Below, piece by piece: positions 1,107 to 30,965 of a DNA stretch of 64,000 bases. The translations under genes were made by a program, and so were the position numbers. The stretch lies in NCBI GenBank assembly GCA_963823335.1, contig CAWGLD010000006.1, positions 96,001 through 160,000 of the forward strand. Direction: 5' to 3'. A model generated the notes under the pieces. That model saw only the letters and a list, made by a program, of their open reading frames with translations, was not told the origin of the DNA and did not search any database. The first letter of the stretch is position 1, and each line of letters opens with the position of its first letter. This DNA is from an uncultured delta proteobacterium. GTDB lineage: Bacteria; Desulfobacterota; Desulfobacteria; Desulfobacterales; B30-G6.

Positions 1107-1594
1107 GATTCTGCCTCCTTGGTGGAAATGAGCTGTTTTAAGAAATCCGTAAGAAGAATCAATGCGAGCACCCCACACCCAAGGGCGACCGCATACGTGA
1201 ATGGGTAGTAGATGATTCTGAGGGTTTCCGTGACTTCACCGGTACTTCTGAGGGTATTGGCTTTTAATGCCAGCTGCCAGCCGGCCAGGATAAAAAATAC
1301 GGAACACATAGCATTGTTGACTGCCGCAAGAACCCAACGGGTCTTGGGAGGAAAGACATTTACCAGTACATCCACGGCAATATGGCCTTTTTTGATCTGT
1401 GTGTAGGCCAAGGCAAAGGCTGTCAAAAGCGCTCCTGAAAATCCCATCAGTTCATATGTCCCGCTGATGGGCACCCAGAACATACGAAAAACAATATTGG
1501 CACATGTCAACAGAACCATGACAATCAGAACAAGGCCCGCCAGAAACGTCAGTATTTTGTTAAGGTACGCTGTAATCTTCGTTAAATAGTTCAT
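1103..1594 (-). CDS. dctQ: TRAP transporter small permease (DctQ)
   Basis: 163 aa, four hydrophobic segments, GHIAVD motif, lies between dctP and dctM. Confidence 0.9.
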   Translation of the reverse strand: MNYLTKITAYLNKILTFLAGLVLIVMVLLTCANIVFRMFWVPISGTYELMGFSGALLTAFALAYTQIKKGHIAVDVLVNVFPPKTRWVLAAVNNAMCSVFFILAGWQLALKANTLRSTGEVTETLRIIYYPFTYAVALGCGVLALILLTDFLKQLISTKEAES

Positions 1595-1600
1595 GATACA

Positions 1601-1676
1601 TCCGAAGCACGAAATTCGAAATACGAAACAATACTCAATGTTTGGATTTGTTTCGTATTTCGATATTCGAATTTAG
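1601..1676. repeat. 7-bp-period inverted tandem array (GCACGAA/ATTCGAA/ATACGAA ... TTCGTAT/TTCGATA/TTCGAAT)
   Basis: Heptamer units followed by their reverse complements; same unit family at ~61390-61541. Confidence 0.8.
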
Positions 1677-1698
1677 AGTTTTCTTTCGGCCGTACGTT

Positions 1699-2724
1699 TT
1701 ACTTTCCAGCGTGTTTTGCGGTGAGCGCTTTGATGTCGTTCACAATGGCTTCACCGGGATAGCCCTTTTCCGTAGCACTTTTGATCCAGTCTTCAGTCAT
1801 AAAGGTAAGTTTGGCATCCCATTTGGCTTTCTCTGCAGAAGACAGGCGGATGAATTCCACACCCTGTTCTTTTTGCGACCATGCATTGGCCTCTTTCACG
1901 TGATTGTCCATATACGTGCCCGTCCAAAGGGCCTGCTCCACACGCAGGTTTTCAATCACTGCCTTGACATCATCGGGCAATGCATTCCATTTTTCGATAT
2001 TCATGACCACCGCAAATGGATAGATGACCGTATCGGTTTGGGTAACATATTTACAAATTTCTGCAAATTTAAAATCTTTCATGACCTCCGTGGAGGTAAA
2101 GAGACCCTGAACAACACCCTTTTGCAGGGCTTCGGGTGTTTCAGACATGGGCATACCTACCTGGTTGGCACCCCAGGCTTTAAGGATCTGGGCCGCCCCA
2201 CCAGAGGCTCTTAAGTCCAGGCCTTTGATATCATCAAGGGTTCTTACCGGTACTTTGGACATGATATTGGCGGGTGCTGTGGTAAACATGGTCAGGACCC
2301 GGACCTTGGCAAAAGATGTGGGCAGGTATTTCTGATAGAGATCCCAGAGTACCAGACTACCGGTTTTAGCATCGGGCAATCCCAATGGAAGGCTGGTGGC
2401 GTTGGTGGTGATAAAACGGCCGGGCTGATAGGCCATGCAGAGGCAACCGATATCTGCCGTTCCGGCGATGACACCGTCCATCATGTCCATGGCACCCAGG
2501 AGGGTTCCACCCGGGTATGTGTTGATGGCGACTTTGTTGGCAGTTCTTTGCTCAACTTCCGTTTTCCAGCGTTCCATTTGAACACAGGGAAATGTCGGGG
2601 CCGGTGGAAAATTGGCATAGCTGAGTTTTATGGATCCGGCCAGCGTCATTGTCGGCGTCAAAAAGGTCGCGACAAGGGCAGCAGCAAAGAAAATGGTGCC
2701 TAAAAGAACAATATTTTTCCTCAT
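1699..2724 (-). CDS. dctP: TRAP transporter periplasmic substrate-binding protein (DctP)
   Basis: Signal peptide; YPGGTLLG, DIKGLDLR and PMSETPEALQKGVV motifs; GGAGG RBS. Confidence 0.92.
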   Translation of the reverse strand: MRKNIVLLGTIFFAAALVATFLTPTMTLAGSIKLSYANFPPAPTFPCVQMERWKTEVEQRTANKVAINTYPGGTLLGAMDMMDGVIAGTADIGCLCMAYQPGRFITTNATSLPLGLPDAKTGSLVLWDLYQKYLPTSFAKVRVLTMFTTAPANIMSKVPVRTLDDIKGLDLRASGGAAQILKAWGANQVGMPMSETPEALQKGVVQGLFTSTEVMKDFKFAEICKYVTQTDTVIYPFAVVMNIEKWNALPDDVKAVIENLRVEQALWTGTYMDNHVKEANAWSQKEQGVEFIRLSSAEKAKWDAKLTFMTEDWIKSATEKGYPGEAIVNDIKALTAKHAGK

Positions 2725-2930: not shown

Positions 2931-5255
2931 CTAGCACGGCTGTTCTTTTTCGGTCAGGGGGTCGATGCCGCAGGAGTCGATACCTTTTTTCTTTTTTATC
3001 TCAGCCAGCACTCTCTCAGGTGTTATGGGAAGATCCGTAATCCGCACACCGATGGCGTCATAGATGGCGTTGGCAATTGCCGGGGCGGTGGGCACACAAC
3101 CTGGTTCGCCGATTCCTTTGGCCCCATAAGGCCCGTCCGGGTCAATGGTTTCAATGACCACAGGTGTCAAGGGGAACGCATCCTTGGCGGTAAGTATTTT
3201 GTAATCGCGAAAATCAGGATTCATGTTACGTCCTTTTTCGAGTATCACCTGCTCGGTGAGGGCATAACCGACACCCATCATAACCCCCCCATGGACCTGG
3301 CCGTCCAAAAGCATGGGATTGATGGCCCGGCCAACATCATGGGCAGCAACATAATCGAGAATTTCAACTTTTCCGGTTTCTTCATCTACCTTCAACCGTA
3401 CGCCGTGGGTCCCGAAGGCATAGGTCATGGAAAGGTTTCCCCGAAAATCTCTACCCATGTTTTCATTTGCGGGATCATAAAAATAATCGGCCATCATCAT
3501 GGTACCGCCGTGGCTGAAATGAGCCTTTCGAAGCAGTTTGGCAATCGAGATGCTCTTTTCGGGATCGTCCTGGACAAACACATGCCGATTTTGAAGACGG
3601 AGTTTAGCTTGTGGTACACCCAGAGCCCCGGCACCCATTTCTAAAATACGGGTCCTGATTTTTTCTGCAGCTCCAAGTGCGGCATTTCCCGCCACAAAAG
3701 TCGTCCGGCTGGCGTGGGCACCTACATCCCAGGGACAAATGTCACTGTCGTGATGAATAACATGGATATCGTCAACCTCAAGACCCAGGTGTTCAGCTAC
3801 TATTTGGGCCAGCACCGTATCGGCACCCTGCCCCATGTCCGAGGCGCCTGTAAAAACATCGGCTTTCCCGAAGTCATCCAGCTTGATAATTGCACCGCAG
3901 CCATCGGATTTATATATTCGGGCGCCACCCCCGACATGAATTAAAGAAGCGATCCCTATACCTTCTCCTGCAGCTCTGGGTTTATCAAGGTGCAATGCCT
4001 TTTCAACCGCGTCAATACATTCCGGTAAACCGCAGGTGGTAATTTTAAACCCCTGGGGCGTTTCGTCTCCGGGCTGATTGGCGTTGATCCGTCGGATTTC
4101 CAGGCGATCGATACCAGCGGTTTCGGCCAATATATCCATGGCGCTTTCGATGGCAAATGTAGCCTGGGGATTGCCATAACCCCGCATGGCCTGGGAATAG
4201 GTATTGTTCGTGTAAACACATTTGGCCTCGTAACGAACATTGGGCACTCGGTAAAGAGATGTGATCGGCATCATCATCACCGATGGCGTGGTAACACCCC
4301 AGGAGGTATAAGCGCCATTATCCAGCACCATATTTATATCCCGGAACAGCAGACGACCCTGGGCGTCGCAACCCATGGCTATGTCGATGATGGTTGGCTG
4401 CCGGGTGGATGTGGCCTTAAACTCCTCATCCCGGTCAAACAAGATTTTCACCGGTCGGCGGGCCCGCCAGGCCAGCAAAATAGCCACATGTTCATAAGCA
4501 TAAGTGTCAAGTTTGCTGCCAAAGCCTCCCCCGATAACAGGCTTGATGACCCGTACGCGTTTATCAGAGATTCCCAACGCCTTGAGAGTCTCTTGAAAAT
4601 CCTTTTGCGCAAGGGATGGAATCTGGGTGTTGGTATGGATGGTTAGGTTGTTGTTATTGTCAAAGTCAGCGATGGCACCGCTGGTTCCAAGACAGCAGTG
4701 GGTGACCCATGTGGTTGTGAAGCGCTTTTCAACCACATGGGCAGCCTCTTTGCGAGCACTATTTACATCACCGTAGTGCAGCTTCCATGGCATTTTCAGA
4801 ATGTTCGTTTTATGGTTTTCGTGCACCAGTGGTGCGTCGGGTTGCATGGCCGTTATGGGATCGAAAACAGATGGCAGGGCCTGATACGTCACCTCGATTA
4901 AATCGATGGCCTGCTTGGCAATTTCCGGATCCGTTGCTGCCACGGCAGCTACTTCATCCCGGTAGGATCTCACCTTGCCGGCTTTCAAAGGAGGATTGTC
5001 TTTATAGACACCCATGCGGATATTGGGAATATCTTTCCCGGTGAGTACAACCCGAACACCACTGAGTTTCTCTGCTTCGGATGTATCAATGTTGACGATT
5101 CTGGCGTGCGGGTATTTGCTGTATAATAGTTTACCATAAAGCATGCCGGGTAGTTTGACATCCTGAATGTACTGAGCACGTCCCGTGGCCTTGTCAACGG
5201 CATCCAGTTTGGGCACCCGTTTGCCAACCGTTGAAAATTCCTGTTTTGTTTCCAT
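2931..5255 (-). CDS. Xanthine dehydrogenase-family molybdopterin-binding large subunit (candidate indoleacetyl-CoA hydroxylase, IaaIJK-like)
   Basis: GGGFGSK, AMRGYGNPQ, ASRTT, DVGRAINP and GAKGIGEPG (catalytic Glu) motifs; substrate inferred from context. Confidence 0.9.
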   Translation of the reverse strand: METKQEFSTVGKRVPKLDAVDKATGRAQYIQDVKLPGMLYGKLLYSKYPHARIVNIDTSEAEKLSGVRVVLTGKDIPNIRMGVYKDNPPLKAGKVRSYRDEVAAVAATDPEIAKQAIDLIEVTYQALPSVFDPITAMQPDAPLVHENHKTNILKMPWKLHYGDVNSARKEAAHVVEKRFTTTWVTHCCLGTSGAIADFDNNNNLTIHTNTQIPSLAQKDFQETLKALGISDKRVRVIKPVIGGGFGSKLDTYAYEHVAILLAWRARRPVKILFDRDEEFKATSTRQPTIIDIAMGCDAQGRLLFRDINMVLDNGAYTSWGVTTPSVMMMPITSLYRVPNVRYEAKCVYTNNTYSQAMRGYGNPQATFAIESAMDILAETAGIDRLEIRRINANQPGDETPQGFKITTCGLPECIDAVEKALHLDKPRAAGEGIGIASLIHVGGGARIYKSDGCGAIIKLDDFGKADVFTGASDMGQGADTVLAQIVAEHLGLEVDDIHVIHHDSDICPWDVGAHASRTTFVAGNAALGAAEKIRTRILEMGAGALGVPQAKLRLQNRHVFVQDDPEKSISIAKLLRKAHFSHGGTMMMADYFYDPANENMGRDFRGNLSMTYAFGTHGVRLKVDEETGKVEILDYVAAHDVGRAINPMLLDGQVHGGVMMGVGYALTEQVILEKGRNMNPDFRDYKILTAKDAFPLTPVVIETIDPDGPYGAKGIGEPGCVPTAPAIANAIYDAIGVRITDLPITPERVLAEIKKKKGIDSCGIDPLTEKEQPC

Positions 5256-5330
5256 TCCTTATCCGTTCCTTTGGTTGTATATCAAGAAAGGTTGCATTTT
5301 TATCTCATCTGGAAGCACATCAAAATCAGG

Positions 5331-5837
5331 TCAAGTTTGGTTCTTCCAGGCTACGACTTTCACATCCTGTGACCCTTTATCTACAGCGGCCTGGATGGAT
5401 TCGAATATCTGGGTATAGCCGGTACAACGACAAAGATTACCGGCCAGAGCGTGTTTGATGTCGCCCAGCGCGGGAGTCGGGTTTTCATCCAGAAGAGCCT
5501 TAGACGACATGATCATGCCCGGCGTACAAAACCCGCATTGAATACCGCCGTGTTCCACAAATGCACGCTGCAGCGTGTGCAGAGTGCCGTCTGCGCCCGA
5601 CAGTCCTTCAATGGTCGTCAAGACCCGGTCATTGACTTCTGCCGCCAAATACAGGCAGCTGTTGACAGCCTGGCCGTCGATAATGACGGTACAGGCACCG
5701 CATTCGCCACTGCCGCAGCCCTCTTTGGTTCCGGTGAGTCCCATTACCTCTCTAAGCAGATAAAGCAAGGTCCAATGATCCTCTATCTCCATCTGGATAT
5801 CATTACCGTTTAGATTGAACTGTATCTTTGTGGACAT
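5331..5837 (-). CDS. Xanthine dehydrogenase-family 2x[2Fe-2S] small subunit
   Basis: GCGSGECGACT, QCGFCTPG and NLCRCTGY motifs; ATG at 5837 follows GGAGG (the ORF track start 5879 is likely too long). Confidence 0.93.
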   Translation of the reverse strand: MSTKIQFNLNGNDIQMEIEDHWTLLYLLREVMGLTGTKEGCGSGECGACTVIIDGQAVNSCLYLAAEVNDRVLTTIEGLSGADGTLHTLQRAFVEHGGIQCGFCTPGMIMSSKALLDENPTPALGDIKHALAGNLCRCTGYTQIFESIQAAVDKGSQDVKVVAWKNQT

Positions 5838-5897
5838 GTACAAACCTCCAAGGAATTTGAAGTATGTCGCAGCAGGCAAAGAGGAATGCGCTGGCTG

Positions 5898-6779
5898 CTA
5901 ATATTTTTCTTCGATTCGCCTTAGGCACAGCATACCCATTCTTCGAACAAACACAGACACCATTTCACGGCGGTACCAGGCTTGTCCACGGGTGCTGTCT
6001 CGTACCCTGGATTCTTCGGCTGCGATTTTTCCAGCTTCAGTCAGAATATTTTCATTTAGCGCCTTGCCCATGAGAAATCGCTCGGCGCTGAGGGTTCGCA
6101 GCGGAGTGGGTGCGGCTACCCCTAGACAGATTCGGGCTTTTCGACAAGTAGCTGTATCCTGATCCAAGGTCAAGACAATACCCACACCGATAAGGGGTAG
6201 TTCCATTGCAGCCCGCCGGCCGAGTTTTTGATAAGCGCCGCCGGTATGAGGGGGCTGGGGTGGAATGACAATTTCAGTCAGGATCTCACCTGATTCCATT
6301 ACGGTTTGCCCCGGCCCCTCAAAAAAGTGAATCAGATCCACAGTTCTTTCACCGTTTGGGCCATATATTTTAGCCACCCCGTCGAGAGCGATCAAAGGAA
6401 TGGCACCGTCTGCCGACGGTACGGCGTTGACGAGGTTGCCGCCGATAGTGGCCACATTTCGAATCTGCGTAGATCCTATGTGCTGCACAGCATCGTGGAT
6501 GATGGGATATTGATTTCGGATGAGAACGGAGTTTTCCAGGGTTCGGTGAGTTGCCAAGGCACCGATAATCAGTTCATGAGTGTCCGGATTGATCTGCACC
6601 CGTTCCAGACCCGAAAGATGTTTTAAAGAGATGAGATAATCAGGGGCGATCTTTCCTTGTTTCGCCTTGACGATTACATCGGTTCCTCCGGCCACGTACA
6701 TAACGCGATCACCATGGGACTCAAACAAGGACACCGCTTCATCGAGTGTTTGGGGCACAAGGTAAGTAAATGTTTTCAT
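5898..6779 (-). CDS. Xanthine dehydrogenase-family FAD-binding medium subunit
   Basis: AGGTD and IRNVATIGGNL motifs; no Cys-rich [4Fe-4S] insertion. Confidence 0.92.
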   Translation of the reverse strand: MKTFTYLVPQTLDEAVSLFESHGDRVMYVAGGTDVIVKAKQGKIAPDYLISLKHLSGLERVQINPDTHELIIGALATHRTLENSVLIRNQYPIIHDAVQHIGSTQIRNVATIGGNLVNAVPSADGAIPLIALDGVAKIYGPNGERTVDLIHFFEGPGQTVMESGEILTEIVIPPQPPHTGGAYQKLGRRAAMELPLIGVGIVLTLDQDTATCRKARICLGVAAPTPLRTLSAERFLMGKALNENILTEAGKIAAEESRVRDSTRGQAWYRREMVSVFVRRMGMLCLRRIEEKY

Positions 6780-6839: not shown

Positions 6840-8132
6840 TTATACAGGTCTGTTGTCAAATACACGTTTAGATTTTCGCTCCGACCTCGGCAAGGAGCAG
6901 GTATCGAGCAACTCTACTTCGCAGCTTACCATGATACTGTTTTTAATTTTACGACAAATGGAAGCCTCGAGTTCCCTGGCCTGTTCGGCGTCGGTATCTG
7001 ATCCACATTCCACACGAAGCGTCATGGTATCTTTACCGTTTGATTCCCGTTCAAGTATCACCTGGTACTCACAGGATATTTCAGGTATGGAGGAAAGAAC
7101 TTCATCAATCTGGCCCGGATAAATGTTAACGGCCCGGAAAATAATCATATCGTCCGAACGCCCCAAAATGCTGTCATGCATGGGAAGCAGGTTGCCGCAA
7201 GAACAGGGTGACGGTATCATGCGGGTCAGATCTCGTGTACGATACCGTATCAAGGGTGATGCCTCCTTGCACAGGGTCGTAACCACCATTTCACCGACCT
7301 CACCCTCGGGTACCGGTTCCAGGGTTTCCGGATCGAGAATTTCAAGGAGGTAATAATCGGCCCAGTAGTGAATACCTTCATGCCGGGAACATTCAAGACC
7401 GGTGCCTGGTCCATAGAGCTCGGTCATGCCCGGGATATCAAACATGTCTTCCAGGCCAAGCAAGGTCTTGATACGCTGACGCATGGCATGACTACTTCTT
7501 TCAGACCCGAAAATCATTTTCTTTAAGACTATTTTATCTTTCAGATGCCGTCTTTCGATCTCTTCCGCCATGAGAAGAGCCATGCTTGCGGTGCAACACA
7601 TAACCGTTGTTTGCAGATCCACCAGAAACTGACACTGCATATCGATATTTCCAGGCCCGATGGGCAGCGCCATGGCACCGAAACGTTCACAGCCAAGTTG
7701 AAAGCCGACTCCCGCTGTCCAGACACCATAACCAACGGCGATCTGAACACGATCCTCCTGGGATAGTTCAGCCATTTCGTAGCAACGCGCAAAAAAATGG
7801 CCCCAGTCATCGACATCTTTGCGGGTGTATGCCAGAATTTTTCGTTTTCCGGTGGTACCCGACGATGCATGAATCCGAACCACTTCGGATTCTGGGACAG
7901 ACAAGAGGGGCAACGGGTACCCGTTTCGTAAATCCTCTGCGTTTGTAAAGGGCAGTTTTCGGATATCGTCCAGTGTGTGGATATCTTGCGGAGTTACCCC
8001 TGAGAGATCCATCATCTTTTTGTAAAATGCGGAACCCTCATACACATGGGATGCTGTCCATTGCAGGCCCTTCAACTGGTGTGCTTTCAACTCGTCTCGT
8101 GATTGAAAAGCCGGCATAAATGTTCTACTCAT
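6840..8132 (-). CDS. Phenylacetate-CoA ligase family enzyme (candidate indoleacetate-CoA ligase, IaaB-like)
   Basis: HASSGTTGK, RYRTRD and GRSDDM motifs of the PaaK family; located in the iaa-like operon. Confidence 0.88.
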   Translation of the reverse strand: MSRTFMPAFQSRDELKAHQLKGLQWTASHVYEGSAFYKKMMDLSGVTPQDIHTLDDIRKLPFTNAEDLRNGYPLPLLSVPESEVVRIHASSGTTGKRKILAYTRKDVDDWGHFFARCYEMAELSQEDRVQIAVGYGVWTAGVGFQLGCERFGAMALPIGPGNIDMQCQFLVDLQTTVMCCTASMALLMAEEIERRHLKDKIVLKKMIFGSERSSHAMRQRIKTLLGLEDMFDIPGMTELYGPGTGLECSRHEGIHYWADYYLLEILDPETLEPVPEGEVGEMVVTTLCKEASPLIRYRTRDLTRMIPSPCSCGNLLPMHDSILGRSDDMIIFRAVNIYPGQIDEVLSSIPEISCEYQVILERESNGKDTMTLRVECGSDTDAEQARELEASICRKIKNSIMVSCEVELLDTCSLPRSERKSKRVFDNRPV

Positions 8133-14702: not shown

Positions 14703-14722
14703 GTCTATCCACCTGAGGGGTC

Positions 14723-15421
14723 CTAGCTCAACTCGTCATACGATTCCATTACCGCTTTCTTCCCACGGGCCAAATGCTCCCGGACAAGATTTTCAACACC
14801 GTCCGCATCTCGCTGTCTGATGCGGTCGAGCATATCTTTATGATCCTCATTGCTCATTTTCGCCAGTTTCTCATTTCTCAGTATCAGCTGTCGAAATCGA
14901 TAGATCTGATCGCGCAGATTATTGATCATATGGATCAGCTTCGGGCTTCTGCTCAAGGCATACAATAGATCGTGAAAATCTGTGTTGATGTCGGGAAGCG
15001 CGTCGAGATCTTTATTATCCAAATGTTTCTGATATATCTTGATCTTTTTCTCAAGAGGTTTAAGGTCTGTCGGACGATGCTTTTCGGCAGCTAATCGTGC
15101 TGCATAGCTTTCCAGAACGCTTCGAATACCGAATGTTTCTTCTACGTCCTCCCGGCTGAGCCCCAGCACATTGAAGCCACCCCGGGGAAGTTTTCGTAAA
15201 TAGCCTTCTCTTTCCAGTTTGTGGATAGCTTCTCTGACCGGTGTCCGGCTGATGCCGAGCGTTTCTGCCAAACGACTTTCGATGAGCCTTCCGCCCGGTG
15301 GCACATCACCTTTGATGATCGCGTTTTTCAGATTCTCGAACACATGCTGTCCGAGTGATTTTCGTTGACCGATTTTATCGAGTTCTTCCAATCCTGTGCC
15401 GCTGTCTTTTTGGGAACCCAT
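14723..15421 (-). CDS. GntR/FadR-family transcriptional regulator (FCD domain)
   Basis: N-terminal wHTH LAETLGISRTPVREA; C-terminal FCD motifs (NTDFH, EDHKDM, EHL). Confidence 0.93.
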   Translation of the reverse strand: MGSQKDSGTGLEELDKIGQRKSLGQHVFENLKNAIIKGDVPPGGRLIESRLAETLGISRTPVREAIHKLEREGYLRKLPRGGFNVLGLSREDVEETFGIRSVLESYAARLAAEKHRPTDLKPLEKKIKIYQKHLDNKDLDALPDINTDFHDLLYALSRSPKLIHMINNLRDQIYRFRQLILRNEKLAKMSNEDHKDMLDRIRQRDADGVENLVREHLARGKKAVMESYDELS

Positions 15422-15470: not shown

Positions 15471-16661
15471 CTATATGACGCCTCTGCTTTTCAGAGCTTC
15501 GAGAGTTGCTGGATCATACCCCAGTTTCTGACCATAAATTTCATTGTTATGCTCACCAAAGCGGGGTGGAAACGTAAGCTGGCCCCCGCTGTTTTTTATA
15601 AATGAAGTCATGATGGGTGGTGGTGACAACGTAATTTGTTGGGAAGTGATGGGATCTTTGGCGAAGAGCAATTGTTTCTTGACCAATGGGTCTTGAATGA
15701 CATCCGTGATGGACTTGATCTTGCTGACAGGGACCGTTATGGACTGTAAGAGTTCGATAAGATCCTCGGAGGTCATTTCTTGGGTGATGGCATTCATGGC
15801 CTTATTCAAATTTGTAACATCCTGTATTCTACCGGAATTTTTCTCGTATTCTGGTTTGTCAAGGGATTTGAACATTGATTGCTTCACCAGCGTCTTCCAC
15901 TGTCGATCATTTCCGACCGCCATATAAATAAAGCCGTTTTGGGTTTTATAAACCGAAACAGGACAAAAAAATTCATGGGTGTTGCCTCTACGGGTAATTT
16001 TTTTTCCAAAACTGGACGTCAGGGTAATGGGAACCGTTAACCATGAAACAGAAGATTCGAACATGGACAAATCAATACGGCTCCCCTCTCCTGTGAATTG
16101 CTTTTTTAAAAGTGCTTTCATGAGGAGTCCGTAAGCATGTTCGCTGGTTCCCATGTCCGGCAGAGGTATGCCAAGCACCTGCGGATCACCATCCGCTGTC
16201 CCTGTGAGGTCCATCAGTCCTGATCTTGCCTGTAAAATCGGATCATAGGCACCCTCGTTGCTGTCCGGTCCGAATCCGGTGACACCCAGCCAGATGATGT
16301 CTTCCTTGACACTTTTGAGCCGATCGAAATCGATACCCAGTTTCTGATAGTTTTTTGGCAATTGATTGGTGATAAAGATATCGACGTTCAACGCATGAAT
16401 CAACCGATCAAAAATATCCCGTCCATCAGGATCGGCAAGATTCAGAGTTAAAGCCTTCTTTCCGGCATTGATACAAAGGTAATAGGCATTCATACGGTTC
16501 TCACTTAACACATTATCCCCGATCATCCTGTTAGGGTCTCCATAAACAGGGTGCTCCAGACGGATAATATTCATGCCGTCCTGGGCGAGTCGATAGGTAA
16601 GATACGGAACTACCGTGGCCTGTTCCAAGGATAACACCGTTATGGTTTTTAAAAAATCCAT
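15471..16661 (-). CDS. Family III (CaiB/BaiF) CoA-transferase (IaaL-like)
   Basis: NAGKKALTLNL, GFGPD, AYDPILQARSGLM motifs, active-site Asp in PLPDMG, and PPRFGEHN. Confidence 0.9.
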   Translation of the reverse strand: MDFLKTITVLSLEQATVVPYLTYRLAQDGMNIIRLEHPVYGDPNRMIGDNVLSENRMNAYYLCINAGKKALTLNLADPDGRDIFDRLIHALNVDIFITNQLPKNYQKLGIDFDRLKSVKEDIIWLGVTGFGPDSNEGAYDPILQARSGLMDLTGTADGDPQVLGIPLPDMGTSEHAYGLLMKALLKKQFTGEGSRIDLSMFESSVSWLTVPITLTSSFGKKITRRGNTHEFFCPVSVYKTQNGFIYMAVGNDRQWKTLVKQSMFKSLDKPEYEKNSGRIQDVTNLNKAMNAITQEMTSEDLIELLQSITVPVSKIKSITDVIQDPLVKKQLLFAKDPITSQQITLSPPPIMTSFIKNSGGQLTFPPRFGEHNNEIYGQKLGYDPATLEALKSRGVI

Positions 16662-16744: not shown

Positions 16745-16761
16745 TTGTATACTGTATACAA
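16745..16761. promoter_or_regulatory. Putative GntR operator TTGTATAC-T-GTATACAA
   Basis: Perfect 8-1-8 palindrome in the divergent promoter, overlapping a minus-strand TTGACA-N18-TATACA; the core recurs at 25897-25911. Confidence 0.75.
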
Positions 16762-21556: not shown

Positions 21557-21595
21557 ATTTATTCCGGGATCAAGCTTGAATGCCAGGGTGGGTTA

Positions 21596-22591: not shown

Positions 22592-22598
22592 TGTCCGT

Positions 22599-24179
22599 CT
22601 AGAGTTCGACCAGCTTGATATTCTCCACCAGTGGTAAAGCCTCTATTTCTTTCTGGACCTTCTCTGGAATCGGCGTGTCTGTGGCCAGAAAAATAATATT
22701 GGTGCTTCCTTCAGCGCTTTCTCCCACATTCATGCGACTGATATTGATCCCCCTTTCTCCAAGCAACAGTGTTATGCTGCCGAATGCACCAGGTTTATTT
22801 TTATTGCGGATATATGCGAAATGGCCTTTGGGTTCCATGGTGAGATGGAAGTCGTCGATTTTGACAATGGCGGCTCGTTTCTTGCCGAATATCGTACCCG
22901 ATATATCACAGGTGCCGTCGGTGGTCAGCACCCGAACCGTTATCAGATTGATATACTCATCCGGGTCAGATGTCGTGGTTTCAGAGATCTTGATGCCTCT
23001 TTCCTGTGCAAGTACATTCGCGTTCACGTAATTGACGTCATCTTTGACCATGGGGGTCAGCAGACCCTTCAAAACACTGGTGGTAATCGGCGTAAGCGTC
23101 ATCCCCTGAAAATCACCGGCGTATTCTACTCCCACCTCTTTTACAGCACCTTTGCACAATTGTGGCACCAGACATCCCATACGGTCACCAAGATTCAGAT
23201 AGGGTCCTATCTTGTTTAAAAGCTCACCTGCAACCGATGGCGCATTGACGGCATTTGTAATTGTTCCTGTTTTCAGATAATCAATAATCTGTCTGGCCAC
23301 CGCCACCGCTACATTGGTCTGAGCCTCCTTTGTTGAAGCACCCAGATGAGGGGTACATATAACATTTTCGTTTTCAACCAGCGTACAAGTTCCTGGAGGT
23401 TCGGTTTCAAAGACATCCAGTGCTGCTCCGCCAACTTTTCCCGAAGCAATGGCATCATTGAGAGCCTTTTCATTGACAATTCCACCCCTGGCACAGTTGA
23501 TAATCATGACCCCGTCTTTCATTTGCTCAAAGGCTTTTTTGTCTAGTAAGCCTGTGGTCTCTTTAATTTTTGGGACATGGATGGTGATGTAGTCGGCTCT
23601 TCGATAGAGCTCCTCCAGCGAGACGCTTTCAAAACCGTCTTTCCGAATCTGCTCCGGTGATACAAAGGGATCATATACGATGACCTGCATTTTAAGTCCC
23701 TGTGCCCTGTCTGCGACAATGGAACCGATTTTTCCATATCCCACCACCCCCAGGACCTTGTTAAAAACCTCCCTGCCCTGCAGTAGCTTTTTATCCCATT
23801 TTCCCGCCTTTAAAGAACTGGTTCCTCTGGGAATATTTCTTGTCAGGGCCATCATCATTGAAATGGCGTGCTCTGCCGTTGTGATCACGTTTCCGGTGGG
23901 TGTGTTCATGACAATGATGCCATGTTTCGTGGCGGCGGGAATATCCACATTGTCCAAACCGATACCTGCTCTGCCAACAACTTTGAGTTTCTTGGCCGCG
24001 AGCATTAAATCCGCAGTAACCCTGGTGGCACTTCGAATAACAAGGGCATGGTATTCACCGATGATTTTTCGGAGCTCTTCCGGCGACAAACCCGTCTTCA
24101 CATCTACCGTTATACCTTCTTCTTCCTGGAACATACTGATCCCGATATCACCCAACTGATCACTCACCAGAACTTTCAT
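22599..24179 (-). CDS. serA: D-3-phosphoglycerate dehydrogenase (long form with ASB and ACT domains)
   Basis: GRAGIGLDNVD, GYGKIG, NCARGG and TPHLGASTKEAQ motifs; C-terminal ACT domain (NKPG..G.I). Confidence 0.95.
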   Translation of the reverse strand: MKVLVSDQLGDIGISMFQEEEGITVDVKTGLSPEELRKIIGEYHALVIRSATRVTADLMLAAKKLKVVGRAGIGLDNVDIPAATKHGIIVMNTPTGNVITTAEHAISMMMALTRNIPRGTSSLKAGKWDKKLLQGREVFNKVLGVVGYGKIGSIVADRAQGLKMQVIVYDPFVSPEQIRKDGFESVSLEELYRRADYITIHVPKIKETTGLLDKKAFEQMKDGVMIINCARGGIVNEKALNDAIASGKVGGAALDVFETEPPGTCTLVENENVICTPHLGASTKEAQTNVAVAVARQIIDYLKTGTITNAVNAPSVAGELLNKIGPYLNLGDRMGCLVPQLCKGAVKEVGVEYAGDFQGMTLTPITTSVLKGLLTPMVKDDVNYVNANVLAQERGIKISETTTSDPDEYINLITVRVLTTDGTCDISGTIFGKKRAAIVKIDDFHLTMEPKGHFAYIRNKNKPGAFGSITLLLGERGINISRMNVGESAEGSTNIIFLATDTPIPEKVQKEIEALPLVENIKLVEL

Positions 24180-24272
24180 TTTTATTCCTCCGTTTTTCAG
24201 TGTCTCCGCGATTTGGGTAGTCTTCTATCTTAATTTGTATTGCTTGTAAAGCACCCAAACCTGCTTGCTGCG

Positions 24273-24321
24273 AAAAAGAAAACGCTCCCCGTATGCTATA
24301 TACGATGAGCGTTTTCTTTTT
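24273..24321 (-). terminator. Long hairpin ending in a U-tract, between trpB2 and serA
   Basis: AAAAAGAAAACGCTC...GAGCGTTTTCTTTTT with an inner CGTAT/ATACG stem. Confidence 0.5.
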
Positions 24322-24413
24322 GTTACAGCAATTTAAGAACCTCGCAGCATGCGAAGCATCACCGAACGGCAGAACCTGCGAGGAATGTGATCGCTGTTGT
24401 TCTTCAACCCCTG

Positions 24414-25787
24414 TTAGCGGCTTTTCAAGAGCTCTGGTTTTGGGTGTCCAGTCAGCACTTTTTGAGATTCTGCGATGGCCTCTTCGTCGAGAACAATATC
24501 TTCTAATTGACCGGATAGATACTTTTCATATGCGCCAAGATCGATCAAGCCATGGCCACTCCAGTTAAACAGAATCACCTTTTCTTTGCCCTCTTCCTTG
24601 GCCTTCCTGGCTTCATCCACCACGCATGCCAAGGCATGGTTGGTTTCGGGTGCCGGGATCACGCCTTCCGTACGTGCCAGGAGAATTCCGGCCTTATAGG
24701 TGGCAAGCTGGCCCACAGCTTTGGCTTCCATGATGCCCTCAGATACCAACTGACTGACAGTTGGCGCCATACCGTGATACCTCAACCCGCCTGCATGAAG
24801 TGGTGGGGGAACAAAGGTATGTCCCAGACTGTGCATGGGAAGCAGGGGGGTCATTTTAGCATAATCGCCATGATCATAGGCAAAGGGGGCCCTGGTCAAG
24901 GTGGGACATGCTTCGGGTTCCACCGGGTATATGGCAACGTCTTTGCCGTTGATCTTGTCATGGGCGAATGGAAATGCAAGACCGGCGAAATTGCTCCCGC
25001 CACCTGCGCATCCTATAACAATATCCGGATATTCGTTGACTTTTTCCAATTGTTTCTTGGCCTCGAGCCCGATGATGGTCTGGTGAAGCATCACATGGTT
25101 CAATACGCTTCCTAAAGAATACCGTGTCTCACCGGTTTGATCCGTGACGGCCGCCTCGACAGCTTCACTGATGGCGATTCCAAGACTGCCCGGCGTGTCC
25201 GGGTTCATCTCCAGAACACCTCTTCCGGCTTGCGTTTCCGTGCTGGGACTGGCAATACATTGGGCGCCCCAGGTGGACATCATTGCTTTGCGATACGGTT
25301 TTTGGTCGAAACTGATCCGCACCATGAAAACCTTGCACTCGAGTCCGAACTGGGAACAGGCGAAAGCCAGGGCACTTCCCCACTGACCGGCGCCGGTTTC
25401 GGTGGTCAAGCGCTTGATACCGAACTCTTTATTGTAATAGGCCTGTGCGACTGCCGTATTTGGTTTATGACTGCCCGGAGGACTGACGCCTTCATATTTG
25501 TAGTAGATGCGTGCCGGTGTATCGAGGGCTTTTTCCAATTCATAGGCTCGAATCAAGGGGGATGGACGCCAGATTCTCAGGACTCTCAAAACTTCTTCAG
25601 GAATATCGATCCAGCGTTCCGTGCTGACCTCCTGTTCAATGAGGTTCATTGGGAAAACCGGTGCCAGCATATCCGGCGTTATGGGACCATCTGGTCCCAA
25701 AGGAGGGTTCATTTTGATATCCGCAAGGATATTGTACCACTGCCGCGGCATCTCATCTTCTGATAACAGTATTTTTTTAGTTTCCAT
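24414..25787 (-). CDS. trpB2: Tryptophan synthase beta, TrpB2 type (stand-alone)
   Basis: MPRQWYN N-terminus, GSHKPNTA (PLP Lys), [32 protein letters not shown] and SGHG motifs; no trpA nearby. Confidence 0.95.
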
Positions 25788-25896
25788 TGTCTCCTCCTTC
25801 CTGATAGGTATTTAAATGGTTTGATGGATTGCGCTACAGGGTAAGATTTGGTGTAACACGCTGAAAAAGATTCATTTTTTAACTTGACTTCAAACA

Positions 25897-25911
25897 TGTA
25901 TACAGTATACA
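25897..25911. promoter_or_regulatory. Putative GntR operator TGTATAC-A-GTATACA
   Basis: Same palindrome as 16746-16760, flanked by TTGACT hexamers on both strands (25884 +, 25923 -). Confidence 0.75.
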
Positions 25912-25976
25912 GATTTTAGTCAAGAGAATAATGATACGTATCCAATTTTTTAACATAAATAAAGAAGGAAATCTCC

Positions 25977-27998
25977 ATGAAATCACGCATTGAACTGTAC
26001 CCCACCGCCCACAACCCTCTCTTGATCAAACCGGATCGTGGATTGCCCACCGCCGCTGCCGTTATTGGGGCCGGTACCATTGGTCCCGATATTGGCTATT
26101 TTCTAAAAAGCGCCCTGCCAAATATGCCCCTTACCCTTGTGGATGTCGATGACAAACCCCTAAAGGCGGCAGAAAAACGATTGGCCGCTTATGCGGCAAA
26201 GGCTGTCGAGCGAAGAAAAATGCGACCGGAACAGGCAAAAACCGTTTTGAAAGACATCCGCTACACCACGGATTACCAGCAGCTCAAAAATTGTGATCTG
26301 GTCATCGAAGCGGCAACGGAAAACATACCTTTGAAACAGAAAATCTTTGCTCAAGTTGAAAATATTGTCAGTCAAGACACCATCATTACATCCAACACCA
26401 GCTCCATCCCGGCCGACCGTTTATTCATGAAAATGAAACACCCGGAACGAACCTCGGTCACCCATTTTTTTGCGCCTGCATGGCGGAGTCTTCCCGTGGA
26501 AGTTATCTCATGGCCTGGCGCCTCTCAGAAAACCATTGATTATCTTTTCTGGTTTCTGGCAAAAACCGGCAAAGCACCCATCGTGACGGACAATGCCATC
26601 TGTTTTGTCCTGGATCGTATTTTCGACAACTGGTGCAATGAATCCGCGTTCCTCCTGAGCCAGGCGACGGCCAGTCAAATTGACAGGGTGGCCGAAGAAT
26701 TTGTTTTTGCCGGCCCTTTTTTTGTACTGAACATGGCCAACGGCAATCCCATTATTATTGAAACAAATACTCTGCAGATGGAGGAAGGAGATCATTACAA
26801 ACCAGCACCGATACTTCATTCCGTCGATCGCTGGGCAACCCATCGTCCCGGTAGCGGGCCTGAGATCCCTGAAAATCTTCACACCGCCATTCGAGATCGA
26901 CTGCTGGGCATTCTGTTTTCTCAGTCATTTGATATTATCGACAGGGGCATCGGCACTCTGGCAGATCTCAATTTCGGTTGCCAGATTGCCCTGGGATTTA
27001 AAGAAGGCCCCCTTGATGTTATGAAACGGCTGGGAAAGACCGAAGTACATCGCATTATGACACGTTTTCAAGAAGACCGCCCAGGATTTCCTGAGGCTGC
27101 CCAGCCATTTGAAACCTATCAATCGTTTCATCGATACATTCTGACGGACGACATGGACGGTGTAAAGATTATCACCATCCGTCGTCCCCAGGCAATGAAT
27201 GCCCTCAATGACGATGTAACCGAAGAAATATGCCAGGTGCTGGCATCCAGCGAAAAGGACCCTGCCGTAAAAGGGTTTGTCATTACAGGGTTCGGTAGCA
27301 ACGCTTTCTCAGCGGGTGCCGACATCGGCAAGTTTCCGACCATGCTGGGAGATAAGGATGCATCTATGCAGTATGCCAGGGATTGCGCTAAAGTCCAGTG
27401 CTACATGGATCAAATGAACAAACCCGTGGTCGCAGCCCTCAATGGCTTGGCCATGGGAGGTGGACTGGAGGTCGCCATTCGGTGTCATGGTATTGTTTCG
27501 GTTGAAAAGGCAGTTCTGCAATTTCCGGAAATCACGTTGGGTATTCTGCCCGGTATTGGCGGTTGTGTGGTGCCTTACCGTAAGTGGCCCCAGGGGGCAG
27601 CGCTCTTTCATGAAATGATTCTGTTTGGAAAGCCGGTCCCGGCGACAACAGCCGCTGAGATGGGAATCATCAATGGTCTTGTCAAGGATCCGGCGGATCT
27701 GATAGCTGCGGCTATCAAAGAGGTTCAGCGGCTCCAAAACAACATACCGAGAATCAGTAACGCCGCCGTTGACATCCCTGAGATATCGATTCCGGAATCG
27801 CCTGCTGCCGGCAAACAGCTCCTGAGTAAGGAAGCCGTTTCCATTACCGCTGATACCATTCGAAAGGCATCGGCTGCCGACGATCTCGAAACAGCACTGG
27901 AGATAGGGTATGAGGGTTTCGGCGATATCGCCTGCTCTGCTGCCGCCAAAGAAGGAATATCCGCATTTCTACAAAAACGAAAACCGAACTTCAAATAA
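25977..27998 (+). CDS. 3-hydroxyacyl-CoA dehydrogenase / enoyl-CoA hydratase fusion (IaaP-like)
   Basis: GAGTIG, IEAATE, SNTSS and HFFAP (HAD domain); FSAGADI, GGGLE and PEITLGILPG (crotonase domain). Confidence 0.92.
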   Translation: MKSRIELYPTAHNPLLIKPDRGLPTAAAVIGAGTIGPDIGYFLKSALPNMPLTLVDVDDKPLKAAEKRLAAYAAKAVERRKMRPEQAKTVLKDIRYTTDYQQLKNCDLVIEAATENIPLKQKIFAQVENIVSQDTIITSNTSSIPADRLFMKMKHPERTSVTHFFAPAWRSLPVEVISWPGASQKTIDYLFWFLAKTGKAPIVTDNAICFVLDRIFDNWCNESAFLLSQATASQIDRVAEEFVFAGPFFVLNMANGNPIIIETNTLQMEEGDHYKPAPILHSVDRWATHRPGSGPEIPENLHTAIRDRLLGILFSQSFDIIDRGIGTLADLNFGCQIALGFKEGPLDVMKRLGKTEVHRIMTRFQEDRPGFPEAAQPFETYQSFHRYILTDDMDGVKIITIRRPQAMNALNDDVTEEICQVLASSEKDPAVKGFVITGFGSNAFSAGADIGKFPTMLGDKDASMQYARDCAKVQCYMDQMNKPVVAALNGLAMGGGLEVAIRCHGIVSVEKAVLQFPEITLGILPGIGGCVVPYRKWPQGAALFHEMILFGKPVPATTAAEMGIINGLVKDPADLIAAAIKEVQRLQNNIPRISNAAVDIPEISIPESPAAGKQLLSKEAVSITADTIRKASAADDLETALEIGYEGFGDIACSAAAKEGISAFLQKRKPNFK

Positions 27999-28019
27999 AT
28001 TCGCTACGCGAATTTATTT
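27993..28019. repeat. Short REP-like palindrome AAATAAATTCGC-TAC-GCGAATTTATTT
   Basis: Related copies at 47935-47957, 48976-48998 and 53010-53038. Confidence 0.7.
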
Positions 28020-28031
28020 TCAGGAGGTATA

Positions 28032-29888
28032 ATGAAAGAAGATTTTTTTCTCGGTAACGGAGCCATCGCGCTGGGCCTTCTGGAAGCCGGATGCCAGGTA
28101 CTCACATCTTATCCGGGAACACCTAGTTCGGAGATACTGCCCGAAGCGGTCCGTTTGATAAAATCTGAAAAACTCAATACCTATGTGGAATGGTCTACCA
28201 ATGAGAAAGTGGCCCTGGACAATGCATACGCTGCCGCCATTAGCGGCAAACGATCGGCATGTATCATGAAGCAGGTAGGTCTGAACGTTGCAGCAGATTC
28301 GCTGATGAGTGCGGCTTATCTGGGAACCGTGGGGGGGCTGGTCATTATCTCCTGTGACGATCCCGGCCCGCATTCATCTCAGACGGAGCAGGATACACGC
28401 CTGATGGCCCGCTTGGCGAAAGTCCCGGTACTGGATCCGTCTAACCCGCAGGAGGCTCGGGAGATGGTTATAACTGCCTTCGAACTTTCAGAAAAATACA
28501 GACTGCCGGTTATTCTGAGACCGGCTATCCGGGTATGTCATGCCAGGCAAAACCTGACCTGGGACAGCCTCCAGGCCAACCATCGCCCAGCTGAATTTAA
28601 AAAGGATCCCTTGCGTTGGGCCGCCACGCCAAAATATCGATTTCTGCTCCACAAAGAGCTCAATAACAAGTTGAAAAAAATTGCACAAGAATTCGACGAT
28701 CTAAAGCCCTACAACACACATGATCTGAAGCCTGGAATGCATTTCCCTTTGGGTATTATTGCCGGCGGGGTTCCAAGTTCCGTTGTTAAAGACATTTTAA
28801 ATGACTATGGGCGCACAGATATCCCTATACTGAAAATCGGGGCGCCCTACCCCTTTCCCGACAGCCTCGCCATGACATTTTTACAGGCATGCGACAGGGT
28901 TCTGGTGATTGAAGAAACCGATACGCTGATTGAATACTGTCTGCGGAATCGCGCAAAGGTTTTAGGCCGTTTCACCAGTCATGTCCCGTCTGAAGGTGAG
29001 CTGGTGCCCGAGAAAGTTGAAGGAGTTCTGGAAGCGGTTTTGGCAGAACTCGATCTGCCAAAACTGAACAGCGATTCTCTGGATACTGCCCAGGCTCTCG
29101 TAAACAGTCTTGAACTGCCCATACGAAAACCGACCCTCTGTTCAGGGTGTATGCACCGGTCAGTCTTTTACAGCATTCGCAAGTCCCGTCCCAAGGCAAT
29201 TTTTACCTCCGATATCGGATGTTATACACTGGGTCTCAATCTGGGAAGCGTGGACACGGTTCTGGACATGGGCGCCTCCATCACCATGGCTTCAGGGTTT
29301 TACCATGCCTATGCACAGGATGGTAAGCAGCAACCGATCGTTGCGACCATCGGCGACTCTACCTTTTACCATTCCGGACCTGCCGGCCTGTTGAACGCCG
29401 TCTACAATGATGCCCGATTTGTACTGGTAATTCTGGACAATATGACAACCGCCATGACAGGCATGCAGCCGACCCCATCACTTGGAATACGGGCCGACGG
29501 CAGCAAAGGCAAACAGATACCGCTCGAGAGACTCATAGCAGGATGTGGTATCGACTTCATAGAGGTGATCGACCCCTATGGGCTGAAAGATCTGCACAAA
29601 ACACTCAAGAAAGCGTTTGCCTACGTAAAGGACCCTGATGGTGGTATTGCCGTCGTCATAGCCCGTCATGCTTGCGTCATTGCATACAGGGATCTGGCAA
29701 TCCAAAACAGAAAGGAAGTTACCATAACCGATGAGTGTATTGCGTGCAACCACTGCATAGAACGATTCGAATGTCCAGCCCTTTATCATGACGCCCATAA
29801 CGATAAAACGGCTATCAATCCGGCGCTGTGTATCGGATGCGCCGTCTGCGTTGATGTTTGCCCCAAACAGGCGATTGTGGCTAAATAG
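28032..29888 (+). CDS. iorA: Indolepyruvate:ferredoxin oxidoreductase alpha subunit
   Basis: YPGTPSSE, NEKVA, MKQVGLNVAAD, SSQTEQD, CSGCMH, DIGCY and GDSTFYH motifs; C-terminal 2x[4Fe-4S]. Confidence 0.93.
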   Translation: MKEDFFLGNGAIALGLLEAGCQVLTSYPGTPSSEILPEAVRLIKSEKLNTYVEWSTNEKVALDNAYAAAISGKRSACIMKQVGLNVAADSLMSAAYLGTVGGLVIISCDDPGPHSSQTEQDTRLMARLAKVPVLDPSNPQEAREMVITAFELSEKYRLPVILRPAIRVCHARQNLTWDSLQANHRPAEFKKDPLRWAATPKYRFLLHKELNNKLKKIAQEFDDLKPYNTHDLKPGMHFPLGIIAGGVPSSVVKDILNDYGRTDIPILKIGAPYPFPDSLAMTFLQACDRVLVIEETDTLIEYCLRNRAKVLGRFTSHVPSEGELVPEKVEGVLEAVLAELDLPKLNSDSLDTAQALVNSLELPIRKPTLCSGCMHRSVFYSIRKSRPKAIFTSDIGCYTLGLNLGSVDTVLDMGASITMASGFYHAYAQDGKQQPIVATIGDSTFYHSGPAGLLNAVYNDARFVLVILDNMTTAMTGMQPTPSLGIRADGSKGKQIPLERLIAGCGIDFIEVIDPYGLKDLHKTLKKAFAYVKDPDGGIAVVIARHACVIAYRDLAIQNRKEVTITDECIACNHCIERFECPALYHDAHNDKTAINPALCIGCAVCVDVCPKQAIVAK

Positions 29889-30024
29889 AGGGTGGTTGAG
29901 GGTTAGAGGGGTTGGAGGGGTTCGGCTTTTGGTTACCCTTACAAGTGGCTCACCAATTACATGAGCCTAAGAATTCAGAAGTCAGAAGTTCGTAAAGCTC
30001 CAAATTGTTTTAATGCTGGAAACC

Positions 30025-30165
30025 GAATGAACATCGAACATCGAACGTCCAACATCGAATTTTGAATTTGAAAAGACGAACTAACAGAAATAATTTGGTA
30101 TTGGTTTTTTGTTTTCATTCAACATTGAACGTTCGATGTTCGATGTTGGACGTTGGACGTTCGTC
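30025..30165. repeat. 7-bp-period inverted tandem array (AACATCG/AACGTCC ... CGATGTT/GGACGTT)
   Basis: Same family at ~30810-31005, ~35321-35462 and ~56527-56648. Confidence 0.85.
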
Positions 30166-30216
30166 TTTATCATGTCATCAGTAATAAATTAAGCATTCAA
30201 AACTGAAGGAGGCTAT

Positions 30217-30786
30217 ATGCCTACCATAAATTTTGTACTCAGCGGCCTGGGTGGCCAGGGCATCCTGTTTATGACCAAAATCATTGCCAATACGGCATTG
30301 CGTAAAGGCTACAATGTCATGGGAGCGGAAACACATGGCATGGCACAGCGAGGAGGCTCTGTCATTTCTCACCTCAGGTTAGGCAATGTCAACAGCAGCC
30401 TTGTCAAAACTGGTTCAGCACAGTTCCTGCTGGCTCTTGAAGAAAATGAAGCCTACCGCAATCTTCCCTTTCTTGCAAAAAACGGACACCTATACAGCGA
30501 CACGGTTTCAGGCGATTTTCCTATGCCGAAGGTCAAACCCTATCTTGATAAAATGGGTATACGATACGATGCCCTGCCGGCCGGCAAAATCGCTCTTGAA
30601 TTAGGTGCGCCTGTGTCCTCCAATCTGGCCATGATTGGCTTTTTTGCCGCATTTCAGGAGGGACCTTTTGCAGCGGATGATTTTCAAGAGACCATCGAGA
30701 GCATCAGTCCGGGACGATTCAAGGATATCAACTTGCGGGTTTTTGAAAAAGGTCTTTCTGCAGGTAATACGGCTAGAGCATTATGA
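30217..30786 (+). CDS. iorB: Indolepyruvate:ferredoxin oxidoreductase beta subunit
   Basis: GLGGQG and ETHGMAQRGGSV motifs. Confidence 0.93.
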   Translation: MPTINFVLSGLGGQGILFMTKIIANTALRKGYNVMGAETHGMAQRGGSVISHLRLGNVNSSLVKTGSAQFLLALEENEAYRNLPFLAKNGHLYSDTVSGDFPMPKVKPYLDKMGIRYDALPAGKIALELGAPVSSNLAMIGFFAAFQEGPFAADDFQETIESISPGRFKDINLRVFEKGLSAGNTARAL

Positions 30787-30965
30787 CGATATAATTTCTA
30801 ATTAAAAAGATGAACGTCCAACATCGAACGCTGAACATCGAATGAAAACGAATAGTAAAGAGCACTCTGTAACAAGATGTGTCGGCGGGCTCAAGCCCCG
30901 TCGATAGGGGAAATGTGCTCGCTGCCGGCGTTCAATACCGACATCTGTTTCTTCATGTTACAAAT

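Follow-up and report, generated by a model that had tools for sequence, protein, structure and literature searches.

A shared operator joins TrpB2, SerA and indolepyruvate oxidoreductase genes to an indoleacetate-type cluster in anaerobic Desulfobacterota: a probable route of indole catabolism via tryptophan

The window analysed here, 64,000 nucleotides of the 4.37-Mb genome (G000) of an uncultured delta proteobacterium of the Desulfobacterales, carries genes for a stand-alone tryptophan synthase beta (trpB2), phosphoglycerate dehydrogenase (serA) and indolepyruvate:ferredoxin oxidoreductase (IOR; iorA and iorB), together with a cluster resembling the iaa genes of indoleacetate degradation. 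These genes probably serve the anaerobic catabolism of indole, in which indole would pass through tryptophan, indolepyruvate and indoleacetyl-coenzyme A (CoA) into the iaa pathway while the C3 carrier is rebuilt. The proposal of a preliminary description of this DNA, that TrpB2 and SerA feed indole into the indoleacetate pathway, is supported by comparative genomics; the flux itself we infer. What is new is the entry module, which joins known enzymes to a known pathway. We put it at somewhat better than an even chance that this is also a new mode of aromatic activation without oxygen, a pyridoxal phosphate (PLP)-dependent alkylation of indole at C3 by a C3 carrier that derives from serine and is recycled, encoded in a regulon across many uncultured Desulfobacterota. 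The case is built on gene identities, a shared operator, gene rearrangements and changes in SerA; the chemistry of TrpB2 and IOR and the iaa steps are taken from the literature.

A palindromic operator connects trpB2 with the iaa-like cluster

The preliminary description had reported a palindrome common to the trpB2/fadB-like promoter and the promoter of the iaa-like cluster, and a co-oriented trpB2-serA pair back-to-back with fadB-like-iorA-iorB. Both copies of the palindrome were located, and all five genes were confirmed in position and identity:

25897..25911, no strand: operator TGTATACAGTATACA, in the 189-bp trpB2/fadB-like gap
16746..16760, no strand: second operator copy, in a divergent promoter with the iaa core leftward and bccp-pccB-acd rightward
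22599..24179, minus: serA (type I phosphoglycerate dehydrogenase, PGDH), 526 amino acids (aa), second genome copy, passes TIGR01327
24414..25787, minus: trpB2, stand-alone tryptophan synthase beta, 457 aa, passes TIGR01415 and NF009057
25977..27998, plus: 3-hydroxyacyl-CoA dehydrogenase/enoyl-CoA hydratase fusion (fadB-like), 673 aa, below the FadB/FadJ cut-offs
28032..29888, plus: iorA, IOR alpha, TIGR03336 score 658 (cut-off 650.9)
30217..30786, plus: iorB, adjoining iorA, TIGR03334 score 130.1, under the 205.8 cut-off
14723..15421, minus: GntR/FCD regulator, presumed from co-occurrence to bind the operator

The palindrome, TGTATACNGTATACA, has exactly two sites in the genome, and still two when one mismatch is allowed; base composition predicts 0.02 exact sites. 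At up to two mismatches the window holds three matches against a shuffle mean of 0.02, the third lying inside the mutase gene. Sigma70-type promoters stand back to back at the 25897 operator, with TTGAC at 25884 on the plus strand and at 25919-25923 on the minus strand, and the 16746 operator has TTGAC at 16771-16775 on the minus strand. Across all loci, TTGAC starts 11-17 nt ahead of the palindrome in 112 of 120 distinct exact operators (shuffle mean, 1.8), a spacing that puts the palindrome over the –10 region, where a repressor would be expected to bind. A generic consensus promoter scan, with 2 promoters found and 4.7 expected, missed the operator-linked promoters. Downstream of the operator no Trp-rich leader was found. 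The operator is likely bound by the GntR protein encoded within the iaa-like cluster, whose closest relatives are mostly from uncultured Desulfobacterales or Deltaproteobacteria. The operator-defined gene set is a real regulon; chance adjacency of the trpB2, serA, ior and iaa genes was rejected on the operator counts, the shuffles and the trpB2-context controls given below.

The operator and its gene set recur in relatives

Synteny of trpB2, serA, ior and iaa genes, which the preliminary description had proposed to look for in other genomes, proved to be widespread together with shared operators. We sampled 401 genomes of the order (ortholog of the iaa-type hydantoinase gene hydA at E<=1e-220) and 401 of the phylum (hydA at E<=1e-200). 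In the order sample the exact operator was present in 76 genomes and the hydA ortholog in 77, both occurring together in 62, the operator only in 14, hydA only in 15 and neither in 310; the relatives are kin, so that these and the following counts are not independent and no p-value is claimed. A reversed-pattern control was found in 5 of the 401. The phylum sample had hydA in 57 of 401 genomes, and of the 20 regions viewed there, many again had the operator ahead of the CoA-transferase.

Gene order varies and membership persists: across relatives the operator stands before trpB2, serA, serC, iorAB and the iaa core. With op for operator, the window's own family (f1) has serA-trpB2 <-op-> fadB-iorAB; family f11 has fadB <-op-> trpB2-serA-iorAB; f29 has trpB2 <-op-> serC (8 genomes) and also fadB <-op-> serA-iorAB; f12 and f77 have op-Mo enzyme-...-trpB2-iorAB (Mo, molybdenum); f83 has op-fadB-trpB2-iorAB; and in f85 and f32 the operator accompanies a trpB2 of 60% identity and a short serA. 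Genome G378 carries four operators on four contigs (no more at one mismatch), one each ahead of the iaa core, the single-standing trpB2, pccB-acd-iorAB and serC-serA; in its congener G297 a one-mismatch site precedes trpB2, and serC-serA lacks one.

The context of trpB2 was scored within +/-1.5 kb, with the operator within 500 bp, in 62 of the 77 hydA-positive and 47 of the 324 hydA-negative order genomes, which were chosen via operator, hydA and best-hit lists and not at random. An upstream operator or a pathway neighbour accompanied trpB2 in 52/62 hydA-positive versus 8/47 hydA-negative genomes. Seven of these eight exceptions carry an exact operator, there or elsewhere, and in two the contig with the iaa genes breaks off short of hydA. 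The ancestral site of trpB2, seen in many relatives, reads ribBA-ribH-nusB-trpB2-(88-aa Cys-rich open reading frame, ORF)-MBL hydrolase; trpB2 was found there in 7/62 hydA-positive versus 22/47 hydA-negative genomes. In the window genome (G000:C1:704770-705456) nusB is fused in frame to the 88-aa ORF and trpB2 is gone, which we read as the scar of trpB2 loss from the ancestral ribH-nusB site. This ORF (RCPRLG...C...C.....CW) follows trpB2 in most Desulfobacterota loci viewed and is absent after the window trpB2. A 237-aa ABC-ATPase-like gene (L081:3076-3786) also recurs near trpB2, in hydA-positive and hydA-negative genomes alike. Outside the order, among the 30 best-scoring trpB2 loci per group, serA, serC, iorA or a class I aminotransferase gene adjoins trpB2 in 20/30 hydA-positive versus 4/30 hydA-negative loci, the hydA-positive group comprising six families with 10 rows from one.

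An intact TrpB2 and altered SerAs

The window TrpB2 scores 624.7 with TIGR01415 (cut-off 518.85) and 149.4, below the 392.45 cut-off, with the trpB1 model TIGR00263. Aligned to 4QYS and 6HUL, it retains the catalytic residues SHK108 (PLP lysine), E130, the GGGSN phosphate loop, R336 (GGLRYHG) and S410, in motifs invariant in 13 rows. The Arg of GGLRYHG is presumably the binder of phosphoserine. Use of O-phospho-L-serine by TrpB2 is mentioned in passing in PMC11917138. As the sole TrpB2 in G000 it is not an extra copy, an idea that was rejected. The housekeeping serA and trpAB that the preliminary description had suggested looking for are both present: G000 has a complete trpEGDCFBA operon elsewhere, a second serA 65% identical to that of the window, and serC and serB, with no operator upstream of housekeeping serA, serC, serB or trpEGDCFBA at up to three mismatches. 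No tryptophanase was found in G000, the best beta-eliminating-lyase match being a 350-aa threonine-aldolase-like protein. Regulon copies of TrpB2 fall into two classes, of 60-67% and 82-97% identity, and in a tree of 39 rows they form one large group and a long-branched trio, for which two changes are needed. G044, a relative with trpB2-serA and neither operator nor hydA, falls within the large group, a position that suggests secondary loss.

The window SerA scores 641.6 bits with TIGR01327 (cut-off 454) and has the catalytic, ASB and ACT domains. In PGDH of M. tuberculosis, Y461, D463 and N481 bind serine (PMC5471267); at these positions the window SerA has Asn, Asn461 and Asn479, so that the serine-binding set is not reproduced, and the housekeeping SerA of G000 has Asn, Asp and Asn. 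The Asp-to-Asn change is present in 7/7 of the family-f1 regulon SerAs shown, while non-regulon copies keep Asp in 13/14; a second serA was found in each of the six f1 genomes searched, as well as in G000. Within f1 the change is a single inherited event. In five genomes of four families the SerA adjoining trpB2 is a form of 314-328 aa that has neither ACT nor ASB domain, and the ACT-less type of SerA escapes serine inhibition (PMC6300728). The short forms stand in three places of a SerA core tree (FastTree, 32 rows), which suggests independent losses. Judged from these sequences, several regulon SerAs may be deregulated for catabolism. No serB was present in any of the 402 loci viewed, which is consistent with use of phosphoserine by TrpB2. 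In a hydA-negative relative (G477, L405), trpB2 runs in the same direction as a serC with 65% identity to the f29 regulon SerC.

IorAB, the fadB-like fusion and the aminotransferase

IOR-type conversion of indolepyruvate to indoleacetyl-CoA has been reported in gut acetogens (PMC13290082). G000 has four iorA paralogs; the second one in the window (53313-55336), followed by iorB2-paaK2-panE-like, is split over two frames (481 + 215 aa) by a frameshift or a sequence error. The fadB-like fusion gene was always beside an operator in the relatives viewed, and its product, which we take to be IaaP-like, is likely to act in beta-oxidation of 2-aminocinnamoyl-CoA.

As the preliminary description had noted, no SerC or aromatic aminotransferase occurs among the 45 window proteins scanned. 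The sole aminotransferase among them is part of a 1029-aa protein (37384-40473; NF004799 above cut-off) in which a class III aminotransferase domain is fused to phosphotransferase and M23 domains. Outside the regulon, G000 has 15 strong matches to class I/II aminotransferases (E<1e-29). In relatives, SerC and an aminotransferase do occur, either behind the operator or strung together with the pathway genes. The co-oriented strings in other classes read trpB2-aminotransferase-ior (G551, G818), Mo enzyme-dehydrogenase-class III transaminase-epimerase-trpB2-aminotransferase-ior (G523) and serA-trpB2-iorA-iorB-serC (G761), and in the trpB2-aminotransferase-ior strings the genes follow one another as the proposed reactions do. 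The aminotransferase of these strings, a 364-aa class I protein, scores under every named cut-off, and its substrate is presumed from context. No operator at up to three mismatches stands before trpB2 in the views of G523, G551, G818 and G761; wider context outside the order was viewed for these four trpB2 loci only. The single transaminase that had been suggested to shuttle the amino group is not needed, since relatives use SerC and a separate class I aminotransferase.

Methanogens salvage aryl acids in the opposite sense, from indoleacetate through indoleacetyl-CoA and indolepyruvate to tryptophan. If ior and the aminotransferase likewise ran reductively, or did nothing but degrade tryptophan, then trpB2, serA and serC would have been gathered as generally tryptophan-related genes. 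We hold this to be very unlikely. Strings of iorAB with paaK are common, a second one being in the window itself, and iaa clusters without linked trpB2 exist; but TrpB2 and serine are needed in neither direction, and the stand-alone operators before trpB2 and before serC-serA in G378 cannot be passive hitch-hiking.

The iaa-like cluster and the IaaF step

The operon leftward of the 16746 operator and its surroundings comprise:

15471..16661, minus: family III CoA-transferase (IaaL-like), heading the cluster
12337-13971 and 14105-14503, minus: split B12-dependent acyl-CoA mutase (IaaGH-like)
10080-12176 and 8188-9954, minus: hydantoinase/oxoprolinase A and B, for ring opening
6840..8132, minus: PaaK-like CoA ligase (IaaB-like)
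2931..6779, minus: xanthine-dehydrogenase-family Mo enzyme, three subunits
1103..2724, minus: TRAP transporter dctP and dctQ, with dctM running off the window start
16944-17156, 17219-18781 and 18968-20116, plus: biotin carrier, carboxyltransferase and YEG-type acyl-CoA dehydrogenase
32614-33036 and 30966-32648, minus: methylmalonyl-CoA epimerase-like protein and acyl-CoA ligase

Hydantoinase and Mo enzyme belong to the iaa cluster; we take the hydantoinase/oxoprolinase pair to be IaaCE-like and the three-subunit Mo enzyme to be IaaIJK-like. CoA ligase, family III CoA-transferase, B12 mutase, hydantoinase pair, Mo enzyme and regulator are all together in one cluster of the window. The gene classes match the scheme of PMC8360864, but IaaF is missing. 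A GGG motif marks IaaF, and strict anaerobes have an IaaF with its own electron-transfer flavoprotein (ETF; PMC8360864). Relatives with the same core have an acyl-CoA dehydrogenase with its own ETF beside the CoA-transferase, with GGG in 44/44 distinct sequences. In G000 no IaaF ortholog was found (best match, 35%); the window-type dehydrogenase has YEG instead of GGG, as do 24 of 25 such sequences. The bccp-carboxyltransferase-YEG set and the IaaF/ETF set never occur together in the Desulfobacterales loci viewed, and the former is apparently a non-orthologous replacement of IaaF. An OAD beta subunit and a pyruvate-carboxylase-B domain are encoded elsewhere in G000, and Na+ pumping or carboxyl transfer to pyruvate at this step is conceivable. 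The epimerase-like/acyl-CoA ligase pair is operator-linked in relatives, with no operator found at the window copy. A thiolase known from iaa clusters of other families lies 1.7 kb past the window end. Matches of a protein search with the mutase carry generic names only.

The proposed route weighed against its alternatives

In the route that we propose, a GntR-type repressor would bind TGTATACNGTATACA over the –10 region and so control a regulon by which anaerobic Desulfobacterota would degrade indolic compounds, with an entry module that would activate indole without O2. TrpB2 would condense indole with O-phospho-L-serine or serine to tryptophan; a class I aminotransferase, housekeeping in G000 and co-encoded in other classes, would yield indolepyruvate; IorAB would convert this to indoleacetyl-CoA, CO2 and reduced ferredoxin; and the iaa core would produce 2-aminobenzoyl-CoA and acetyl-CoA. 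SerA and SerC would rebuild phosphoserine from 3-phosphoglycerate, the amino group returning via glutamate. By our accounting the net conversion would be indole to 2-aminobenzoyl-CoA and CO2, with acetyl-CoA recycled to 3-phosphoglycerate by use of the IOR ferredoxin, without a ligase step and at a cost of about three ATP equivalents. Repressor binding, the inducer, the direction and size of the flux and the use of phosphoserine by the window TrpB2 are what we infer. One C3 unit would be consumed per indole, which would account for the recruitment of SerA and SerC. Degradation of tryptophan or indoleacetate needs neither TrpB2 nor serine, and salvage for protein synthesis needs little serine; indole degradation via tryptophan would explain the recruited serA and serC, the altered SerAs and the absent serB.

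Several observations weigh against this route. TrpB2 is near-universal in the order (57/61 relatives at E<1e-60), its alignment holds no residue specific to regulon copies, and a single origin of these copies appears in 40% of bootstrap trees. In 4/62 hydA-positive (versus 17/47 hydA-negative) order genomes trpB2 is in neither of the scored contexts, and seven hydA-positive genomes retain it beside ribH or mbl, in G091 also beside iorAB; trpB2 at the ancestral site in iaa genomes is compatible with a separable entry module and also with a looser link. Outside the order, trpB2 is next to iorA, serC or an aminotransferase gene in 4/30 hydA-negative genomes. The G000 locus and its two-site regulon have neither aminotransferase nor serC. 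As for SerA, the non-regulon copy of G029 has Asn, the sole-copy full-length regulon SerAs of f11, f29, f31 and G378 retain Asp, and in plants Asp by itself does not settle serine sensitivity (PMC5471267). Finally, the products reported from Desulfobacterium indolicum and from anaerobic consortia are oxindole, isatin and anthranilate (PMC6221969).

Some of these points would suit indole salvage or detoxification, in which the regulon responds to indolic compounds and degrades tryptophan and indoleacetate, and TrpB2 does no more than scavenge indole, at low flux, for making protein or disposing of a toxin, with no growth on it. Salvage is the described role of TrpB2 (PMC2700814; PMC11085991), the enzyme is single-copy as well as near-universal, and the partial linkages in the 4/30 hydA-negative genomes fit. 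We nevertheless regard salvage as unlikely: biosynthetic tryptophan demand would not require a duplicated, altered SerA or operators before serC-serA, G000 retains its full trp operon, and trpB2 is controlled by the operator of a catabolic cluster without a Trp leader.

The reports of oxindole and isatin (PMC6221969) would also fit a TrpB2 that takes another nucleophile, such as substituted indoles or indoline, while a Mo enzyme (e.g. the second, HcrB-like set, which several families have under the operator) hydroxylates indole to oxindole. In G025, G108, G160, G148 and G523 the trpB2 operon includes this second Mo enzyme; yet the enzyme has no ortholog in G000 (best match, 38%), inspection of the loci, in which no family search was made, revealed no isatin-hydrolase-like gene, and the downstream enzymes fit an indole-3-acetyl skeleton. 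We consider this explanation highly improbable. The second Mo enzyme (L080:13745-17527 in G025; also G108, G160, G148, G015, G310, G032, G523) is under the operator, where a saccharopine-dehydrogenase-like gene and a class III transaminase often accompany it, and its FAD subunit is closest to 4-hydroxybenzoyl-CoA reductase beta; a deaminating 2-aminobenzoyl-CoA reductase and tryptamine entry are candidates for its role.

Degradation of indole via tryptophan, if true, would join fumarate addition, carboxylation and water-dependent hydroxylation as a form of anaerobic aromatic activation, would give TrpB2 a catabolic role with biosynthetic enzymes rewired and apparently deregulated, and could be a main indole sink of anoxic sediments, oxindole then arising as a side product. 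How indole is degraded anaerobically was described as a black box in a 2018 review, in which D. indolicum is the only strictly anaerobic isolate studied on indole (PMC6221969); that its oxindole is a side product of a C2-hydroxylating Mo enzyme is speculation. With its genes, its operator and an isotope signature, the regulon makes anaerobic indole degradation directly testable; it would supply marker genes for indole turnover in sediments and digesters, and in the window lineage it apparently has a second solution to the IaaF step. No literature proposal of an anaerobic route from indole via tryptophan was found in a search that left out most subscription papers and the primary iaa and TrpB2 papers.

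Other features of the window

Contigs of four estuary RNA runs (four studies) cover 30/30 bins of 11001-31000, passengers included, which indicates presence only, may reflect DNA and gives no ranking of the genes. Repeated palindromic elements occupy gaps of the window (e.g. 2750-2900 with 14545-14700; 30020-30170; 53200-53320 with 55570-55680) and are multi-copy in RNA-run contigs. Between the two operons, bile-acid-symporter-like and Dus-like genes (20600-22591), present in close relatives only, are probably passengers, with a role in uptake conceivable for the symporter. Pyruvate kinase (35523-36947) stays beside the cluster in family f1, without an operator. The region 45395-63634 has oah and had of the benzoyl-CoA pathway (above cut-off) and a dch-like hydratase. 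An HGD-D/BcrAD-type pair lies at 59018-61318, with two further paralog pairs in the genome, one of which pairs may reduce 2-aminobenzoyl-CoA.

Comparison with known systems

The closest likeness is to the iaa pathway of Aromatoleum aromaticum (PMC8360864), in CoA ligase, family III CoA-transferase, split B12 mutase and regulator, and also in hydantoinase, Mo enzyme and beta-oxidation genes, compared by gene class and not directly by sequence. The regulon adds trpB2, iorAB, serA, serC and in places an aminotransferase, and the window lineage has bccp-pccB and the YEG dehydrogenase without IaaF. With the TrpB2 family (TIGR01415; Sulfolobus TrpB2, PDB 4QYS; Thermococcus indole salvage) the window enzyme shares intact motifs and a stand-alone gene apart from trpA, but it is under a catabolic operator with IOR and iaa genes and not in a biosynthetic setting. 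In Bifidobacterium, exogenous indole also enters through TrpB condensation, passing via tryptophan to indole-3-lactate as followed with 13C-indole; there, however, the product is excreted, the ring stays unopened and TrpB is a TrpC fusion (PMC11085991). The oxindole-isatin-anthranilate route of D. indolicum (PMC6221969) shares the substrate, sulfate reduction and convergence on anthranilate or its CoA ester, whereas it proceeds by direct C2 hydroxylation of indole with no C–C bond formation at C3.

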